Positions 41,145-47,821 of a stretch of 64,000 nt of DNA are shown in pieces; the first letter of the stretch is position 1; each line of letters starts with the position of its first letter. The stretch lies in contig JAZUOY010000015.1 in the NCBI GenBank assembly GCA_045604885.1, forward strand, positions 1,424 through 65,423, in the 5' to 3' direction. The notes under the pieces are model-generated. The model saw nothing but the letters and a program-made list of their open reading frames with translations. It was not told where the DNA came from and did no database searches. The translations under genes and the position numbers were made by a program. This stretch comes from Candidatus Nanosyncoccus sp. Its GTDB lineage: Bacteria; Patescibacteriota; Saccharimonadia; Saccharimonadales; Saccharimonadaceae.

Positions 41145-41876
41145 ATGGAACGCTTTTCTAGAGAAAAATACGAAGATTTTTTAAAAAAGATAGATTTAGC
41201 GAAATATCGAGAGAAGTATGCTAAGGTGAAGACTGTGGAGATGGATTTGCCATACGAAATTCAGGCTTTGCCAACAATTTATGCTGAGTACTGGGATAAC
41301 GTGAACCATAGAGAGGAACCACTTTCCTATGAGGAATATTACAAGTTATATTGGAATTCTTGTAAAGATGAGATTATGGCATTTCGTAAGAAAACTGGTT
41401 TTGGCGAAGATTGTGATTGTTATGAACGTGGCTTAGAAGCAAGAATCTATCGCACCTGGGCATCTTTAATTACTCAGATTCAGGGTGGATACGTAGCTGA
41501 GGAGGTTTTTGGCAAGGGAAGCGTCAGAATGAGCCCTGAGCTTGATCGTAAGAAAATTGATATTATGATCGTTAATAAGGATGGCAGTGAGCGTTTGCGG
41601 ATTCAAGTCAAAAAAGTTACTCATCGTCCAGAAATTGCCAGGATGCATAAGAATGTGAGAAATGAAAATGGTTCCGTAGATTTGTATTATGTAGTACCAT
41701 CTCCGCGTAATTATGAGCATCCGACCTATCTCATTAATGGTCGTAATCACAAAAGAGGCGAATTACGTCCATTTACGAAAGATTTCGTGAAATGGAATCC
41801 GGCGACCGCAACTATGGATAGACTAGATAATGGATTTATCATTTTCACAAAGAATGCTTTTTTGGGACTAGAATAA
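41145..41876 (+). CDS. TaqI-family type II restriction endonuclease
   Basis: KY..VKTVEMDLP, GLEARIYRT..S..TQ and PELD...ID...IQVKK match my recollection of TaqI-family motifs. Confidence 0.8.
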   Translation: MERFSREKYEDFLKKIDLAKYREKYAKVKTVEMDLPYEIQALPTIYAEYWDNVNHREEPLSYEEYYKLYWNSCKDEIMAFRKKTGFGEDCDCYERGLEARIYRTWASLITQIQGGYVAEEVFGKGSVRMSPELDRKKIDIMIVNKDGSERLRIQVKKVTHRPEIARMHKNVRNENGSVDLYYVVPSPRNYEHPTYLINGRNHKRGELRPFTKDFVKWNPATATMDRLDNGFIIFTKNAFLGLE

Positions 41877-43062
41877 TTTGGTAGTCGGGGCTTAGCCCCT
41901 TTTGCGTTAAAAAGGATCGTAGGCGATAGTCTAGAATTTGGTCAATGCTCGGTTTGATGCCCAGCTCCTGACATTTTTTGTAAGCAGTAGATTTTCGTGA
42001 GACAATCTCTGGGATTTGGACAAGGATATATTTATTATTGCGTCCATCTTCCAGGTTGGTCTCGTAAACTGCTTGACCAGTTGATCCAGACCCAGCAAAA
42101 AAATCTAAAATGATAGAGTTAGAAGTATTAGTCATGCGAATAAAATATTTTAGCATTTCTACTGGCTTCGGAGTATCAAAAATCCCTTGTAATCCTAATC
42201 TTTTGAGGTCATGTGTGCCTTGCCGTGAATAAAAATTAAGAATTGATGGAACATTATCTTCACTTTCTGTAAGGTATTTGATGGCGTAAGGGCGACCGTT
42301 TTTGAAATTGAGGCGATGTTTTTTCGCAAGTTCTATAAAATGTTCATCGGTAGCCCACCCTCTTGTCGGTAAAGGACTGAGGTGAAGATTGATAGACGGA
42401 ATATCGACTGCTCGGGGGGTACTAGGAGTAGAAAGATCTACGGCGAAAAAAATCCTACCCTTGTTATCTAACTGTGAATAATTTCTCAGCCACGTGATGT
42501 TTTGCTCATGACAGATAGACTTGATTCGTTTCGTAAGAGTTTTTTCTGCAGCGGATCTGCCTTGTTGCTTGAAAATAGTTTTAATTTCATTTTGAAGATC
42601 ATTGATCATTTGTTTTTGCTCCGGAATATCCGTGCGATGTACTATAAATTTCCGAATATTCTTCCTGTTTTTTGCATAACAGAGGACATATTCATGAACG
42701 GTGTTAATTAATTTGGAGTTACTACGCTGAGCTTGTTTGGTGATAAAGGTGCCAATAAAATTTTCGCTTCCAAAAACGCCATCACAGCAGATTCTCAGAT
42801 GAGGAAATTCGTTATCGTCTATAGAAATTAAAATCACCGCATCATCCGCCATGAGTCTTCGAGCTGCCTCTAAACGTGCGTGTATAAAAGCGACCCAATC
42901 ATTGCTGGTATTCTTATCTTTGTAGCTTTTCTGGGTCTGAGTATTATATGGTGGGTCGATGTAGATTAAGTGAATTGCATTCTGGTATTTCGTTAAAAAA
43001 TCAGAATCTTGCATTACATCAAGATTGTCTCCAATATAGACTTCATGATTAAGCGATTTCAT
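41845..43062 (-). CDS. Beta-class (Mod-like) amino DNA methyltransferase; probable start 43062
   Basis: IYIDPPYN precedes TPKP and LDFFAGSGSTG; convergent with and overlapping the REase. Confidence 0.92.
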   Translation of the reverse strand: MKSLNHEVYIGDNLDVMQDSDFLTKYQNAIHLIYIDPPYNTQTQKSYKDKNTSNDWVAFIHARLEAARRLMADDAVILISIDDNEFPHLRICCDGVFGSENFIGTFITKQAQRSNSKLINTVHEYVLCYAKNRKNIRKFIVHRTDIPEQKQMINDLQNEIKTIFKQQGRSAAEKTLTKRIKSICHEQNITWLRNYSQLDNKGRIFFAVDLSTPSTPRAVDIPSINLHLSPLPTRGWATDEHFIELAKKHRLNFKNGRPYAIKYLTESEDNVPSILNFYSRQGTHDLKRLGLQGIFDTPKPVEMLKYFIRMTNTSNSIILDFFAGSGSTGQAVYETNLEDGRNNKYILVQIPEIVSRKSTAYKKCQELGIKPSIDQILDYRLRSFLTQKGLSPDYQIILVPKKHSL

Positions 43063-43102
43063 TAAGGTCATTATAACAAAAAAGGTCTATTGCGACCAAT
43101 TT

Positions 43103-43187
43103 TGGTAGCCGAGACGGGACTTGAACCCGTATGAATTTCTTCATTCGATTTTAAGTCGAACGCGTATACCAATTCCGCCACTCGGCC
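43103..43187 (-). tRNA. tRNA-Leu (TAA)
   Basis: Anticodon arm TTCGA-CTTAAAA-TCGAA, long variable arm, CCA end. Confidence 0.96.
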
Positions 43188-43440
43188 AATTTTGCTTGGA
43201 GGACTATTCAACCCAAATGTTGAACCATCCCTTATTATTTTATCAGAATATCTTTGTAGTGACAAGTCGGCGGAGTTAATGGAATATACTCCTCTCTCTA
43301 GAATAGAGGTGGAAAGGGCTAGGGCGATGGAGGATTATGTCTTATAACGTACCAACTAAAACCTAATTAAACCATTTGTTACCTAGCATAGTTCTCCCAC
43401 GTCTCTCTCAAGCGCCCGAAGGGCGCTGTATTGGTTAGCC

Positions 43441-43579
43441 TGGTGAAATCGGGCGCTCATCAAACCCGTTTGTTTGGAATGATAGTGTATATCTAATACT
43501 GGAGATTACTTTGGTTGGAGTGCGGTCCTCTTCACAGGCAGGTATTGTCTTTTTAATGGTGAAATCGGGCGCTCATCAA
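43441..43579 (+). repeat. 23-bp direct repeat tggtgaaatcgggcgctcatcaa (43441-43463 / 43557-43579)
   Basis: Exact match at 116-bp period; weaker similarity continues for about 25 bp. Confidence 0.93.
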
Positions 43580-43844
43580 GCCCTTCCTGTTTAGATATAT
43601 GAGTATACCCTACCTAGGGACTCCCAGGCTACCCCGTTTAGGACGAAATACGTGCCTTATTTGCTAGCATCTTTGGTGATTTCGTCTGGTAGTATCACTC
43701 GTGTAGTTTCTTTGGATTTATTTTACTAACAGATTAGTTCATATGATAGCAGGGTTTTCCCGCCCGGCCTGCTTTTAATTAAAACACTCTACCGCTAGCA
43801 TTGTTTCTCTGATGTTTTTTCTTGGTGGCTGTTGATGCTAGTGC

Positions 43845-43873
43845 TTGCCATGATTAAAATTATCTGGTATAAT
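43845..43873 (+). promoter_or_regulatory. Sigma70-type promoter
   Basis: TTGCCA-17 bp-TATAAT with a TGn extension. Confidence 0.8.
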
Positions 43874-43881
43874 CATGGCAT

Positions 43882-44003
43882 CATCCAATTCCCACATTTA
43901 CAACTCAAACGGTAACCCAGAGACCTACATAGCGTCCAGAAAGGATGTCACGTAGGTACATAGGGCACTATGCTCTAGGTTACCGAAAAGTGGGAGTTGG
44001 ATG
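43882..44003 (+). ncRNA. Candidate structured RNA / leader (multibranch)
   Basis: Nested stems 43882-43895/43990-44003, 43910-43922/43973-43985, 43923-43928/43952-43957, 43959-43963/43968-43972. Confidence 0.6.
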
Positions 44004-44053
44004 CTAACACCTCGTGGCATCCTTTTTGTGGATGTTGCAGAAAGAAGGATACT

Positions 44054-44887
44054 ATGCAAGACCACAGCGATAATCAACAACCCCAGCCTTACCGAGTCAG
44101 AGTTGGCTGTTTCGTGACACTTAGAAACAATGATGATAATCGCGTCACTAAGTATAAAGTAGTAAGGTCGCTATACTCGTCAAATAATGCGTGGGCGGAA
44201 ACAAGCATTAAGGAGACTCCTACTTCTGGGAGTCTTTCTGTAAGTTCCCCACTTGGAGCTAGTCTGATTGGAAAAAAAGCTGGTGACATTGTTGGCAAAT
44301 ACAAAGTCATGCTAATAGAAGGTGGCGACCATGTAGTGCAAAATATTCAAGACTCGTATGAGCAGGATACCGCTGATAAAGCTAATAAGCTAAAAATGCT
44401 ATTGGAAAAGATACGGTCTGGAGAATGGGTCAAAGCATACGTTACGCGCATTCATCACGTCTGCATCCCAGTCAAAACTCGTCGCGCCAACATTAAGACC
44501 TCATTCCTTCCTGACGGTGTTATGGAGTCTATCGTTATATCGAACATGGCAGCCGAGGCAACAAATCTCTATAGGATAGATTTGTTTCTCTATCTCGACG
44601 ATGACCATGAAATTGGTGCCATGGCGGAAATGCTAATTGAGCGAGACACAGTGAGTGTTCTATGTAGCGACGTTCATAATCCATTGCCAAAAAATTGCTT
44701 AAACGAGAATTATGATTATGTCGTTGCTGATGAACAATCCTCTGAAGAGGGGATGGAATTAGTTCATGGTTTAGAAGTAAAATTATCGCCTGAAGACAGT
44801 AGCTTCACATGTAGGACCGCGCCTCACTCGACAACTAATCACCACTACATGAGAATAGTCCACGAGGACAGTTGTGAGTGTTATTAG
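44054..44887 (+). CDS. Protein with an N-terminal GreA/GreB C-terminal-like domain plus an unknown domain; probable start 44054
   Basis: VRVGCFVTL...LSVSSPLGASLIGKKAGDIV; aagga RBS before ATG 44054. Confidence 0.7.
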   Translation: MQDHSDNQQPQPYRVRVGCFVTLRNNDDNRVTKYKVVRSLYSSNNAWAETSIKETPTSGSLSVSSPLGASLIGKKAGDIVGKYKVMLIEGGDHVVQNIQDSYEQDTADKANKLKMLLEKIRSGEWVKAYVTRIHHVCIPVKTRRANIKTSFLPDGVMESIVISNMAAEATNLYRIDLFLYLDDDHEIGAMAEMLIERDTVSVLCSDVHNPLPKNCLNENYDYVVADEQSSEEGMELVHGLEVKLSPEDSSFTCRTAPHSTTNHHYMRIVHEDSCECY

Positions 44888-45467
44888 TGTTTTTGGAAAA
44901 ACGGAATACGCAAGTAGTAGCACGATTGGCGTCGCTATGTTTTTCGGTATACTTGCAACAGTTTTTTTATTTTTCCTAGCTAGCTCTAAAAACCACAACA
45001 AAACGACTAGAAATAGAAAGCACAACACCTTTGTGTATCGACCTCGCTCGATCAATGATGTACAGGAGCACCAGAGAATTAGACGCTGGGAGATAAAGCG
45101 CGCTGCTTTTGAGGAACAAAAGAAAACACCATTCTTCAAAGACTGGAAGCGCGAGCAATATCAGTGTCAATATGGTAAGTGTGCTTGGTGTAGGAAGTCG
45201 ATAGACCTTCATTCGCCCGATACCCAAGTCGATCATATTAAGCCATTGATGTGGTGGGGGACTAATGAGTACGATAACTTGGTTCTAGCTTGTAAAGAAT
45301 GTAATGAGGAAAAAGGCGATAGTCAATTTGGCTGGGCTGGTGCTAAAGGCATGCCTGGCGAGAATAGAAAACCAGCCTGGATTAGGCCTAATAGATGCTG
45401 TAGAAATTTCAAAGAGCAGAACTCTCAGACAGTATCATATACTACTCTGAACTCAGACAAGCCTTAG
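44874..45467 (+). CDS. Membrane-anchored HNH endonuclease
   Basis: N-terminal TM helix; CAWC...VDHIKP...GTNEYDNLVLACKECNEEKG. Confidence 0.88.
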   Translation: MSVISVFGKTEYASSSTIGVAMFFGILATVFLFFLASSKNHNKTTRNRKHNTFVYRPRSINDVQEHQRIRRWEIKRAAFEEQKKTPFFKDWKREQYQCQYGKCAWCRKSIDLHSPDTQVDHIKPLMWWGTNEYDNLVLACKECNEEKGDSQFGWAGAKGMPGENRKPAWIRPNRCCRNFKEQNSQTVSYTTLNSDKP

Positions 45468-45569
45468 AGAGCCTCTTATGGCCTCACAGAGGGTGTTTTG
45501 ACGGGGTGTTTTTGAGGTTGTCTTTCTCTTCGGAGGCTTTAGCCGACGAAAGCGCGTTAGCGCTTGCCC

Positions 45570-45598
45570 TTGCCTTAGTGTTTTAGACTTGATACAAT
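45570..45598 (+). promoter_or_regulatory. Sigma70-type promoter with no downstream ORF
   Basis: TTGCCT-17 bp-TACAAT with a TGn extension. Confidence 0.72.
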
Positions 45599-45604
45599 GA
45601 AGTC

Positions 45605-45990
45605 CTACACAACGGTATCAGGTAAGGAACGCTGGTACTGTGCTAGCTGAAATAATGCTAGGAGGAAACGCACCTTCCCGTGGTGGGCTGGCTAATGATT
45701 TCCTCGGATAGGTTGCCCATTGCTAAAACAGCCTTGATGGTAGCAGTAATGCCTGGACTAGTAGGCATGAAGTATCATCTGCCACACTATTGTAGCAAAA
45801 GGCGGACAATGGTTTTAGCGAATAATCCGATTCCAAGCCTGACGAAAGCAGGTTGCCGATGGACCTTCTAGCTGCCTTGGCACTAGGTCTGTAGGCAGAG
45901 GGATTATTTGCTATGCCAAAAAAAGCTAGCATAAATACAGGCGAGCAACATGAAGCTGGGAGAAACCTCGGCAAGCTGGTGACCTACCTT
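45605..45990 (+). ncRNA. Candidate large structured ncRNA (~385 nt)
   Basis: About ten stems, many with G-U pairs, downstream of a clean promoter; no credible ORF. Confidence 0.55.
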
Positions 45991-46108
45991 AAGTCTATAG
46001 AAGAGAAAAATATAACGCGATTCAAGGGTGATTCTTCCAGTAGTATGGTTGAGCCTGTTAGCGGCATCACAATTCTCTTTTAGAAGTGTTTCTGGTATAA
46101 TGATGGTA

Positions 46109-47677
46109 ATGTCATTGCTGCCAGGAGAGATAGATAAGACCAAGCTACGTTACATTGTTTACGTGCGCAAATCTACTGATGAGAAGGGAAAGCAGGAGAG
46201 GTCTGTTGAGGACCAAATCGCTGATTGCCTAGACTTAGCCAAACGTAGAGGGTTAAATATTATTGGTGAGCCTATTGTTGAAAAGCGTTCTGCTAAGGTT
46301 GATGGAGGCAGACCACTTTTTGCTAAAATGATTAAATTAATTCGTGACGGTAAGGCTGATGGCATTATTTCCTGGCATCCGGATCGTTTGTCTCGTAATC
46401 CGATTGATGCGGCCACGATTGTAGACATGCTGGACAAGAACATAATCAAAGACCTTGCCTTCCCTACTTGTGAGTTTTCAAACGACTCCAGCGGCAAGAT
46501 GCTACTCAATATATTATTCGCTATCTCAAAGCAATATTCGGAGCATATCAGCGAGGGTGTTACTCGTGGGCTTCGTAGAGGTCTTCAAGAAGGAAAATCT
46601 CAAGGTCGTTACGTCTGGGGTTATACCCGTAGCAAAGAAACTGGACTATATGAGCCAAGTGAATATTTTGAGATTGTCCAAGAAGCATGGGAGATGAAGG
46701 TGAACGGTGCTACGGATGCCGCAATTCTAAAGTTCTTAAAGAAAAATAATCTACGGAGAGCGGTCGAATCAAATCCTGGAAGATTTATAGAGCCTGTCAA
46801 GGAAACCCCAAAGAACATCTTCAAGAACCCAATTTACTATGGTGTTTTGGAGCAGGCAGGACAAGAAGTGGACCTAATTGAAGTTACTGGTGGCGCTTTT
46901 CAGCCTATGATTACTTATGAAACCTTTGCCAAAGTACAAGCTATGGAACGTAGCGGCAAATCGCATGGTGGGCGCAAGAAATCTGGTGGTATTTTCTACC
47001 CACTAAAGCACATGGTAACTTGTGGCGTCTGCAACCAAACTATGGTCGTCTATAAAAGCCGTAGCGGCCATGGGAAACGTGCTAACTACTTGTATTTTGA
47101 GTGTAGGAATAAAGATTGCACTCGTAGTCCCAAGGCTATAAGAGCAAGGGAAATATTTGAGCCGCTATTTGAAGCTGTCCGCCAGTTGCAGTTTACTGAG
47201 GAAGAAATAGAGAAATACAACCAAGAGATTGATAGCTTTAGCGAAGAGAGAATTGTTGAGCTACGTCAGGAAAAGAATAGTATAACTGCCGCTATTGCCC
47301 ACAAGAACAAAGAACTTGAGAAACTGTCTCTTAGCACACCCAATTTGACTAGTAGAGCATTAACTCTAATACGAAAGAGGATTGATTCGCTGTCCAATGA
47401 ACTAGATGAACTTGAGGAGAGCTCTAAATCTATTGATGCTCAAATAAAATCAGCTCAGCGAAGTAAGGTTTCTACTGAGCAAGTGTTGAACCTCCTAAAA
47501 ACGCTTCCTGACAAGATGGAGAATGGCTCCGCCGCTGAAAAAGATGCGATTGCCCGATTATTGTTATTGAACCTCACTATTGACGCACAAAAAAGGCCTC
47601 ATTTCCTCTGGAAAGAGCCTTTTGCTAGTCTGCTTGAATCCCGAAAAGGTGATTCTGGAGGCGCCTACCGGAATTGA
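46109..47677 (+). CDS. Large serine recombinase (resolvase, recombinase, zinc ribbon and coiled-coil domains); probable start 46109
   Basis: YVRKST catalytic motif, DRLSR, CGVC...C...C zinc ribbon, coiled coil; own TG-TATAAT at 46096-46101; last codons are antisense to tRNA-Cys. Confidence 0.93.
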   Translation: MSLLPGEIDKTKLRYIVYVRKSTDEKGKQERSVEDQIADCLDLAKRRGLNIIGEPIVEKRSAKVDGGRPLFAKMIKLIRDGKADGIISWHPDRLSRNPIDAATIVDMLDKNIIKDLAFPTCEFSNDSSGKMLLNILFAISKQYSEHISEGVTRGLRRGLQEGKSQGRYVWGYTRSKETGLYEPSEYFEIVQEAWEMKVNGATDAAILKFLKKNNLRRAVESNPGRFIEPVKETPKNIFKNPIYYGVLEQAGQEVDLIEVTGGAFQPMITYETFAKVQAMERSGKSHGGRKKSGGIFYPLKHMVTCGVCNQTMVVYKSRSGHGKRANYLYFECRNKDCTRSPKAIRAREIFEPLFEAVRQLQFTEEEIEKYNQEIDSFSEERIVELRQEKNSITAAIAHKNKELEKLSLSTPNLTSRALTLIRKRIDSLSNELDELEESSKSIDAQIKSAQRSKVSTEQVLNLLKTLPDKMENGSAAEKDAIARLLLLNLTIDAQKRPHFLWKEPFASLLESRKGDSGGAYRN

Positions 47678-47729
47678 ACCGGTGTAAAAGGTTTTGCAGA
47701 CCTCTGCGTAACCACTCCGCCAAAGCGCC
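47656..47729 (-). tRNA. tRNA-Cys (GCA)
   Basis: GGCGCTT...AGAGG-TCTGCAAA-ACCTTT...AGGCGCC-TCCA. Confidence 0.95.
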
Positions 47730-47821
47730 ACAAGTATATTTTATCATAAGATAGGAGAAAACGAAATCCCCGTTTTTTTCTTGCTTATTTAGTTAGTCTT
47801 TGGTATAATGAAACCAGATAT

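Follow-up and report, generated by a model that had tools for sequence, protein, structure and literature searches.

Patescibacterial serine recombinases that probably carry their attachment site within their own gene and lose a C-terminal tail upon integration

How a recombinase gene can end inside the very tRNA gene that its element has targeted, and what becomes of this end once the element leaves, are questions raised by a mobile element on contig JAZUOY010000015.1 of Candidatus Nanosyncoccus sp. The stretch of this contig that was analysed, 64,000 nucleotides (nt) in length, is referred to as the window. The element is 4,459 bp long (window 43197/43203 to 47655/47661), lies between the genes for tRNA-Cys(GCA) and tRNA-Leu(TAA) of its Saccharibacteria host and encodes a large serine recombinase (LSR). 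According to a preliminary description of this DNA, the attachment site is located in the recombinase gene itself and circularization swaps in a longer C-terminal tail. This view was upheld by a sister element in fused form (L001), by two contigs with circular signatures (L089 and L090), by 27 pairs of left and right attachment sites (attL and attR) and by empty tRNA-Cys/tRNA-Leu joints. We estimate at about 0.88 the probability that the attachment site of the circular form (attP) is located within the 3' end of the LSR gene, which is split upon insertion, and that the enzyme alternates between two isoforms, the tail being lost in the integrated state.

The recombinase gene and the ends of the element

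The two ends of the element and the genes next to them are arranged as follows in the window:

43103-43187, minus strand: tRNA-Leu(TAA) (ARAGORN; Rfam RF00005, 61 bits), a host gene on the B side of the site
43197-43202, plus strand: attL core TGGAGG, left boundary of the element, by direct reading; the same hexamer is found at attR
43198-43347, plus strand: detached 3' end of the LSR gene, made up of the Gly-Gly codons of the junction, the 47 codons of the tail and a stop, in phase with the LSR
46100-47677, plus strand: LSR, integrated isoform, of 525 aa if started at 46100 and of 522 aa if started at the ATG at 46109
47656-47661, plus strand: attR core TGGAGG, antisense of the CCA end, of the discriminator U and of the first two acceptor-stem bases of tRNA-Cys
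47656-47729, minus strand: tRNA-Cys(GCA) (ARAGORN; Rfam, 63 bits), the target gene, intact after insertion

The left core had already been placed at 43197-43202, and direct reading confirmed this position. The core at the right end had been recognized as well, but it actually occupies 47656-47661, one base to the right of the position implied. This hexamer is the only repeat (6 nt) between the element ends, the far end holding tail codons and no tRNA sequence, and the 5' end of tRNA-Leu(TAA) is 9 nt off the attL core. The open reading frame (ORF) of the LSR has its stop codon at 47675-47677 and extends 22 nt into tRNA-Cys from the CCA end, its last four codons and the stop coming from the antisense of this gene. 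The ending GAT TCT GGA GGC GCC TAC CGG AAT TGA, described earlier as borrowed from antisense tRNA-Cys, was found unchanged in the sequence, and so were the 47 open codons said to follow the left core in the same frame. Read in the codon phase of the LSR, these codons translate into LFNPNVEPSLIILSEYLCSDKSAELMEYTPLSRIEVERARAMEDYVL and are closed by a stop at 43345-43347. Taken alone, the window was merely suggestive of a split gene, because the repeat measures 6 nt and an open frame of 47 codons has a chance of about 5% at this base composition.

The enzyme is a bona fide LSR by its domains, its fold and the logic of its attachment sites. Pfam matches comprised PF00239 (Resolvase, E=1.2e-23), PF07508 (Recombinase, E=1e-6) and PF13408 (Zn_ribbon_recom), the latter at 24.9 bits, slightly below its cut-off of 25.3 bits; a PHROG integrase family matched with E=3e-68. 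The motifs YVRKS and HPDRLSRN, which contain the nucleophilic serine and the DRLSR signature, are present at positions that are invariant in alignments, as are the zinc-ribbon residues Cys308, 311, 335 and 340. An AlphaFold2 model of P0003, a relative described below, displayed long paired helices at residues 377-447, and its best Foldseek matches were the full-length SPbeta, Bxb1 and phiC31 integrases (E=4e-20 to 4e-14). A total of 368 LSR homologues were retrieved at E<=1e-10, and the named ones were all from Saccharibacteria.

Relatives in attP form and the architecture of the family

The C-termini of the homologues fell into two classes. Most sequences end a few residues past a conserved Ser/x-Gly, and these short endings (SGARDWT, SGAPD, SGARERT, GEPGGTRTHDTKLKRLVL) are antisense tRNA 3' ends in translation; six sequences extend by 42-50 residues. 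The closest long form, P0003 on contig L001, is 563 aa in length and shares 79% identity with the LSR of the window. It ends in ...SRKGDSGG-PNTTNVEPMVTILSEYLCSDKSIEMADLSFPSRIEVERSMVTDTYIL, which is homologous to the left-end frame of the window and has the same length and stop position, the two tails of 47 residues being about 53% identical by hand count. The tail ORF of the window was likewise recognized by a hidden Markov model (HMM) of the tail (E=1.5e-10). Contig L001 reads ...ggtgattcTGGAGGcccaaac...: the LSR passes through TGGAGG into the tail, and past the tail comes DNA homologous to window 43214-43454, in which one hairpin is identical. Judged from this sequence, L001 is the predicted P-O-P' junction, in a sister element. 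The circular junction forecast in the preliminary description thus has a counterpart in a relative, with the tail fused and left-end DNA following. Neither an attP nor an attB junction of the exact window element was recovered. In another relative, L002, the LSR is 89% identical and ends in tRNA-Cys as in the window.

For the window element itself, the predicted circular junction is ...ggtgattcTGGAGGactattc..., the corresponding attP and attB being ...aaaggtgattcTGGAGGactattcaaccc... and ...ggccaattttgctTGGAGGcgcctaccgg..., respectively. The P arm of attP encodes ...PFASLLESRKGDSGG; the 47-residue tail is encoded by the P' arm together with the DNA that follows, and its first ten codons or so coincide with the P' half-site. 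The predicted circular isoform comprises 565 aa (from the ATG at 46109), against 522 aa for the integrated isoform. Integration would move the tail codons 4.5 kb away to attL, and the LSR would then read the antisense of tRNA-Cys and stop after four residues. Past the tail stop, one structure, picked up by a scan for terminators, is the likely terminator of the joint LSR-tail transcript in the circular form:

43411-43427, plus strand: GC-rich hairpin AGCGCCC-GAA-GGGCGCT, 64 nt past the tail stop, with an identical stem-loop at the same place in L001

Two further contigs, from independent samples, encode long-tail LSRs, contain no tRNA and have exact end overlaps of 30 nt: L089 (P0019, 5,488 nt) and L090 (P0054, 9,352 nt). 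We take such an overlap as the circle signature of an assembly with k=31, the value assumed for the Logan assemblies. Terminal overlaps were absent from two control contigs of the same source, one carrying the integrated form (L091) and the other a fragment of a long form (L092). As to empty sites, contigs from five ruminant-gut runs join tRNA-Leu (43180-43188) straight to tRNA-Cys (47651-47656), with spacers of 7-15 nt. Owing to these joints, adjacent tRNA-Cys and tRNA-Leu genes can be considered common in relatives. A separate observation concerns the target: many contigs of different strains (runs X5-X8) break or diverge precisely at the tRNA-Cys 3' end (window 47656), with unrelated sequence beyond, and this end looks like an insertion hot spot.

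Analysis of the distribution of the architecture was based on a scan of one genome per species, which yielded 80 loci, nearly all labelled Patescibacteria; the LSR ORF could be delimited in 73 of them. Its 3' end overlapped an antisense tRNA in 58 loci (Leu 18, Pro 17, Lys 11, and also Ala, Met, Gln, Ser, Ile and Val). The 15 remaining loci were mostly cut by contig ends or bore tRNA-like residues without an ARAGORN call. Including tRNA-Cys of the window in addition to the nine isotypes of the related loci, the LSR family occupies ten tRNA isotypes and is accompanied by variable cargo. Relatives were Saccharibacteria and other Patescibacteria, so that the earlier hint of a host from the candidate phyla radiation was right. 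The T of TGG (antisense of CCA) fell on codon position 3 in 50 of the 51 cases where CCA is encoded; the reading frame relative to the tRNA is therefore fixed.

The hexamer of the tRNA end recurs upstream, where it is followed by in-frame ORFs of 45-56 codons with a common pattern. The conservation of this left-end frame among related elements, suggested earlier as a check, was found in 34 of the 80 loci: the tail HMM detected a homologous ORF at E<=0.01 in all of these, always on the LSR strand and either fused to the LSR or located upstream. Of these loci, about 16 had been used to build the profile, the others being new detections. On the opposite strand of the 80 loci, no match reached E<=0.01, the best one having E=0.43. 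Furthermore, 27 attL/attR pairs were mapped (26 loci and the window), in elements of 3.0-11.4 kb, and the shared core precedes the tail in frame. The fusion in L001, the 34 loci and the 27 pairs together remove the explanation by chance, and the architecture is common to a large family of elements across Patescibacteria. Searches of protein sets with the tail profile gave nine matches out of 37 word-index candidates, all of them orphan attL ORFs, while a general LSR profile search of representatives gave 51,460 matches at E<=1e-3, with no tail among the 150 matches listed.

The attachment sites provided an account of how the two reading frames end differently. The block common to attL and attR was 4-15 nt long and always included positions +2 to +5 from the T of TGG, corresponding to the antisense of C74, of the discriminator and of acceptor positions 72-71 (GAGG in the window, 43199-43202). 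Because the shared core always covers these positions, the crossover dinucleotide lies within +2 to +5, in line with the earlier proposal of a crossover within TGGAGG. A second motif, TYGAAC, was nearly invariant at +23 to +28 of P' when 32 attP sites were reconstructed, and occurred at +18 to +23 in B'. It was displayed by the P' and B' arms, not by the P and B arms. Its two copies in the window, each a putative binding motif of the zinc-ribbon domain (ZD), are the following:

43220-43225, plus strand: TTGAAC of the P' arm (+23 to +28), read as xTT GAA Cxx (Val-Glu-Pro)
47674-47679, plus strand: TTGAAC in the antisense of the tRNA-Cys T-loop, B' arm (+18 to +23), from the att-site logos; its TGA is the stop

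In the case of LI integrase, the zinc-ribbon-domain motif was found to be 5 bp nearer the centre in attB than in attP, and this arrangement was proposed for LSRs generally (Rutherford et al., PMC3783163). The 5-bp shift of TYGAAC in the present elements fits this model (PMC3783163). In the tRNA arm the motif is read T TGA AC, giving the stop of the integrated isoform, and a T-loop with TCGAAC instead leaves the frame open for a further 17-27 residues. The 5-bp register shift therefore makes the integrated state terminate and the circular state read through.

Selection on the tail and its possible role

Homologous frames need not be maintained for their protein product, and the substitution pattern was examined for this reason beyond the P' half-site. 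Over eight independent pairs, the tail past codon 10 had a pooled ratio of non-synonymous to synonymous differences per site (pN/pS) of 0.35 (Fisher p=1e-22), with 107.6 synonymous differences over 184.5 sites and 143.4 non-synonymous ones over 709.5 sites. The tails of L018 and L023 differed by 13 synonymous and no non-synonymous changes, and those of L046 and L048 had an omega of 0.03-0.07. On this pattern of substitutions, the tail beyond about codon 10 is shown to be under purifying selection as a protein, and the dN/dS below 1 that the preliminary description had looked for in the left-end frame was thereby found. The tails are acidic (mean net charge -2.8) and have 44-55 residues as aligned, including the junction residue. 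They contain an amphipathic helix some 12-20 residues in, and most of them end in Tyr-x-(Leu/Tyr/Phe), with Tyr at position -3 in 19 of 25 aligned tails and a final Tyr, Leu, Phe or Ile in 24 of 25.

Several observations weigh against a switch between two isoforms with a functional tail. The circular junction of the exact window element was not present in Logan contigs of eight ruminant-gut runs, where its depth was 3-5x, and exact-pattern scans for attP (JGI metagenomes and IMG/VR) and for attB (JGI metagenomes) gave no match. One long-form LSR, P0007 (L003-L005), is located in a chromosomal contig, with a further trace of the attachment site upstream:

L003 7719-7742 and 11551-11560: lone core and copy of a tRNA-Leu B' half-site, 24 nt, 2.3 kb upstream of P0007, with no tRNA gene

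On contig L043 (2018-4310), a tail of P0007 type and its cargo, at 96.7% identity, are joined to the LSR of another clade; tails and LSR bodies seem to reassort between clades (L043 as compared with L003), and this chimera argues against tight co-evolution of tail and enzyme. AlphaFold2 models of P0003 and P0064 had confident LSR bodies, but their tails were predicted with a local distance difference test score (pLDDT) below 50 and short helices only, in an alignment where 6 of 73 sequences bore tails, a number small enough for docking of the tail on the enzyme to be still compatible with these models. The most conserved part of the tail is largely constrained at the DNA level: its only invariant residue, Glu9, with hydrophobic and Pro/Gln/His neighbours, is the translated TYGAAC motif (xTT GAA Cxx), and is no evidence of protein function because DNA recognition explains it. 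Lastly, the tails of the window and L001 gave an omega (NG86) of 0.6, or 0.49 beyond codon 10, that is, a weak constraint. Part of their conservation is at the DNA level, because a stretch of 28 identical nt falls on a promoter-like site of the minus strand:

43237-43265, minus strand: TTGTCA-17-TAAAAT with TG, a strong promoter-like site that lies in the tail ORF and is directed outward to tRNA-Leu; 10/12 matches and an extended -10 element

The site faces a tRNA-Leu gene that the insertion has parted from tRNA-Cys. Its DNA is conserved in L001, and once the element is circular, transcription from it would enter the LSR gene in antisense. As a feature of the family, an outward promoter in the tail was rejected, since 4 of 27 elements reached the threshold, as against 5% of control windows.

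Both isoforms should be active, because the integrated element can make only the truncated recombinase and circles exist; the tail would consequently be a feature of the episomal phase. The preliminary description had seen no evident recombination directionality factor (RDF). This point has to be revised, the immediate upstream neighbour of the LSR being a conserved ORF of 41-60 residues in nearly all loci:

45913-46083, plus strand: small acidic ORF of 56 aa, directly upstream of the LSR, candidate RDF

RDFs as small as this are known in other systems. Homologues of the ORF end just upstream of the LSR, including on the contigs with circular signatures, and they align well, with a helix (...nLvELvelLxxID...) followed by ...N..sisDnnGgrIxL at the C-terminus. 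The ORF had no credible Pfam match and no match in PHROGs, the tail likewise having none in PHROGs. A descent of the small ORF as a paralogue of the tail was considered and rejected (hhalign probability 0.5%). On the basis of its sequence and position, the small ORF is a candidate for the RDF.

In the case of phiC31 integrase, the extreme C-terminus is situated at the interface between the ZD and the RDF, and an RDF fused via a 32-residue linker is functional (10.1101/2025.05.02.651858). A 47-residue tail is therefore well placed to modulate RDF binding or the behaviour of the coiled coil. The full-length isoform would integrate and the truncated one would excise, the tail acting at the zinc-ribbon/coiled-coil surface beside the C-terminus, where RDFs bind. 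The reading that we prefer, though we hold it to be somewhat less likely than not, is that the tail commits the enzyme made by the episome to attP x attB and renders it blind to the small protein, the tail-less enzyme responding to this protein for attL x attR. The tail may more broadly be a built-in directionality device, the enzyme of the circle being able only to integrate and the tail-less enzyme excising alone or only together with the small protein, which a tail in cis would keep away; this proposal is tentative and rather unlikely to hold in full.

The main rival to a directionality device retains the architecture and reads the tail as a degron with a non-polar C-terminus, Tyr-x-Leu/Tyr/Phe-COOH, by which the episomal integrase would be short-lived and the integrated isoform stable. 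Loss of a tag on integration is reported for phages of the BPs type (Broussard et al. 2013). The modelled disorder of the tail is usual for degrons, and the recurrence of Tyr at -3 and of Tyr, Leu, Phe or Ile at the end also speaks for this reading. Many integrated isoforms end in polar residues instead (...RERT, ...APD, ...AYRN), but the contrast is not clean, since Leu is also the last residue of 16 out of 60 integrated isoforms (e.g. ...KRLVL in the tRNA-Lys clade). The apparent reassortment of tails between clades (L043 and L003) lends mild support to a motif recognized by a partner other than the enzyme body to which it is attached, and is more in keeping with recognition by the host than with a tail that docks on the enzyme bearing it. 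The conserved acidic amphipathic helix, 15-20 residues into the tail, would not be required of a degron. A degron is, in our view, an unlikely explanation of the tail, yet one to be taken seriously.

It is less easy to maintain that the tail has no function as a protein, its open frame being a by-product of the P' half-site, of the outward promoter and of terminator signals. The coincidence of the invariant Glu and its neighbours with TYGAAC fits this explanation, as do that of the identical ILSEYLCSDKS stretch of the window clade with the minus-strand promoter-like site, and a dS between the window and L001 that is far lower in the tail (0.6) than in the LSR body (2.4). It is rendered improbable by the constraint past the half-site (the pooled pN/pS, the 13:0 changes of L018/L023 and the omega of L046/L048), by a frame without a stop over 42-56 codons, and with a conserved C-terminal motif, in more than 30 divergent elements, and by the lack of generality of the promoter. 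Even more improbable is that the tail ORF forms a small gene of its own at the left end, translated alone in the integrated state. Gene callers do annotate hypothetical proteins of 48-92 aa there (P0121-P0129), and an in-frame TTG exists at window 43192, but the N-terminal parts of these proteins derive from unrelated host flanks without a common start codon or ribosome-binding site; the homology starts exactly at the core, in the phase of the LSR, and contigs in attP or circular form fuse the tail to the LSR without a stop in between. That there is no mobile element at all, the LSR merely overlapping a tRNA and the repeat, the frame and the long forms being due to chance and chimeras, would agree with a repeat of 6 nt and with the missing junctions of the exact element, but is refuted for practical purposes by the empty joints, the ten tRNA isotypes with their varying cargo, the homologous tails at attL in 34 loci, the attP-form contig that runs on into left-end DNA and the circular signatures from two independent samples.

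Other features of the locus and comparison with known systems

The remainder of the element consists of cargo and of a non-coding region with the following features:

43441-43467 and 43557-43583, plus strand: two 27-nt direct repeats, 96% alike and 116 nt apart (family D2), non-coding
43845-43873: strong promoter-like site before the GreA-like ORF, 11/12 matches
43882-44028: long hairpin before the GreA-like ORF (inverted repeats I8 and I19)
43997-44887, plus strand: ORF with a GreA/GreB C-terminal-like domain (PF01272, E=3.9e-8)
44874-45467, plus strand: ORF of an HNH endonuclease (PF01844, E=1e-9; PHROGs HNH families)

Units related to the 27-nt repeats were found in L001, and the block is also conserved in a contig of run X6 with different cargo; the repeats may be protein-binding or origin-like sites. 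The conserved non-coding stretch 43350-43990 had no match in Rfam and may, from its sequence, be an origin or a regulatory region. The contig of run X6, of 5,155 nt, carries a related element that keeps the blocks 43380-44030 and 45462-45566 but replaces the GreA-like and HNH genes by 2,040 bases of different sequence, so that the cargo (44030-45462) appears to be an exchangeable cassette.

With respect to expression, an extended -10 element, TGGTATAAT, was seen at 46093-46101 before the LSR, and TCTGGTATAATGA-like extended -10 elements were seen at 43860-43875 (GreA-like ORF), 46088-46103 (LSR) and 47796-47811 (tRNA-Gly of the host). As far as such sequences can tell, the element appears to use host-type promoters, and the LSR ATG at 46109 would fall at or near the transcript start. 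Outside the element, an N6/N4 DNA methyltransferase gene (41845-43071, minus strand) abuts tRNA-Leu and has a convergent overlap with an ORF of 243 aa (41145-41876), possibly the restriction partner of the methyltransferase.

Among known systems, the canonical LSRs (phiC31, Bxb1, A118/LI, TP901-1 and SprA of SPbeta) share with the present enzyme the catalytic N-terminal domain, the recombinase domain and the zinc ribbon with its coiled-coil insert. The short common core and the 5-bp motif shift between attB and attP are also common to both, and the small adjacent ORF could be the RDF. They differ in that their attP lies beside the integrase gene, either upstream or downstream in published precedent (PMC4068962). 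Here it is inside the ORF, so that the protein differs between states. The targets are tRNA CCA ends and the hosts are Patescibacteria, which also sets the family apart from canonical LSRs. The engineered phiC31 integrase-RDF fusion is a case where a polypeptide joined to the C-terminus by a flexible linker controls direction; it is artificial and permanent and drives excision, whereas the natural tail is attached only in the episome and, if directional, would act in the opposite sense.

An attP within an integrase ORF is the architecture of the SSV1-type archaeal integrases: integration at tRNA genes partitions the int gene and excision restores it. The architecture met here is the same, but SSV1 integrase is a tyrosine recombinase of archaeal viruses and plasmids. 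Its gene is split into two sizeable fragments, the integrated copy being regarded as disrupted, whereas in the present family the last 42-56 codons leave and all catalytic and DNA-binding domains are kept. Phages BPs, Brujita and Charlie have attP in the 3' end of their repressor gene, and integration by a tyrosine integrase removes a degradation tag. The C-terminus changes on integration there as well; here the gene that is cut is that of a serine recombinase, and the degron role is only hypothetical. As recombinase class and cut gene differ, the element falls outside both the SSV1 and the BPs groups. In the case of TnpX of Tn4451, the junction of the circular form creates the promoter of the recombinase, so that the state of the element alters the amount of enzyme; here the joint completes the coding sequence and alters the protein. 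Islander-type islands depend on tyrosine integrases and duplicate a tRNA 3' segment as a long direct repeat (PMC4383910). Insertion into tRNA 3' ends and an intact tRNA are shared with them. The present elements differ by a serine enzyme, a core of 4-15 nt without any duplicated segment, and a T-loop sequence that would be recognized.

To our knowledge, all characterised serine integrase systems have attP outside the integrase gene and a separate RDF. Full-text searches of the open-access literature brought up neither a serine integrase whose attP is located within its own ORF nor these elements of Patescibacteria. Attachment sites that split genes were known for tyrosine integrases and for repressors; what appears to be new here is a serine recombinase that would itself change with the state of its element. 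Serine integrases are major tools of genome engineering, for which the control of direction is central, and the family offers a new principle and possibly compact, self-limiting integration tools. For annotation, an LSR that runs into an antisense tRNA and an orphan "hypothetical" ORF, some 50 residues in length, beside a tRNA gene are to be regarded as two halves of one gene. Being abundant, 3-11 kb in size and provided with exact attB sites at tRNA CCA ends, the elements may give a handle on Saccharibacteria and other Patescibacteria, which are hard to manipulate. If the tail is indeed a directionality device, the direction of recombination would in this family be written into the topology of the integrase gene, and the 5-bp shift between the attachment sites, by which a single motif serves as a stop codon when integrated and as a sense codon in the circle, would do double duty.

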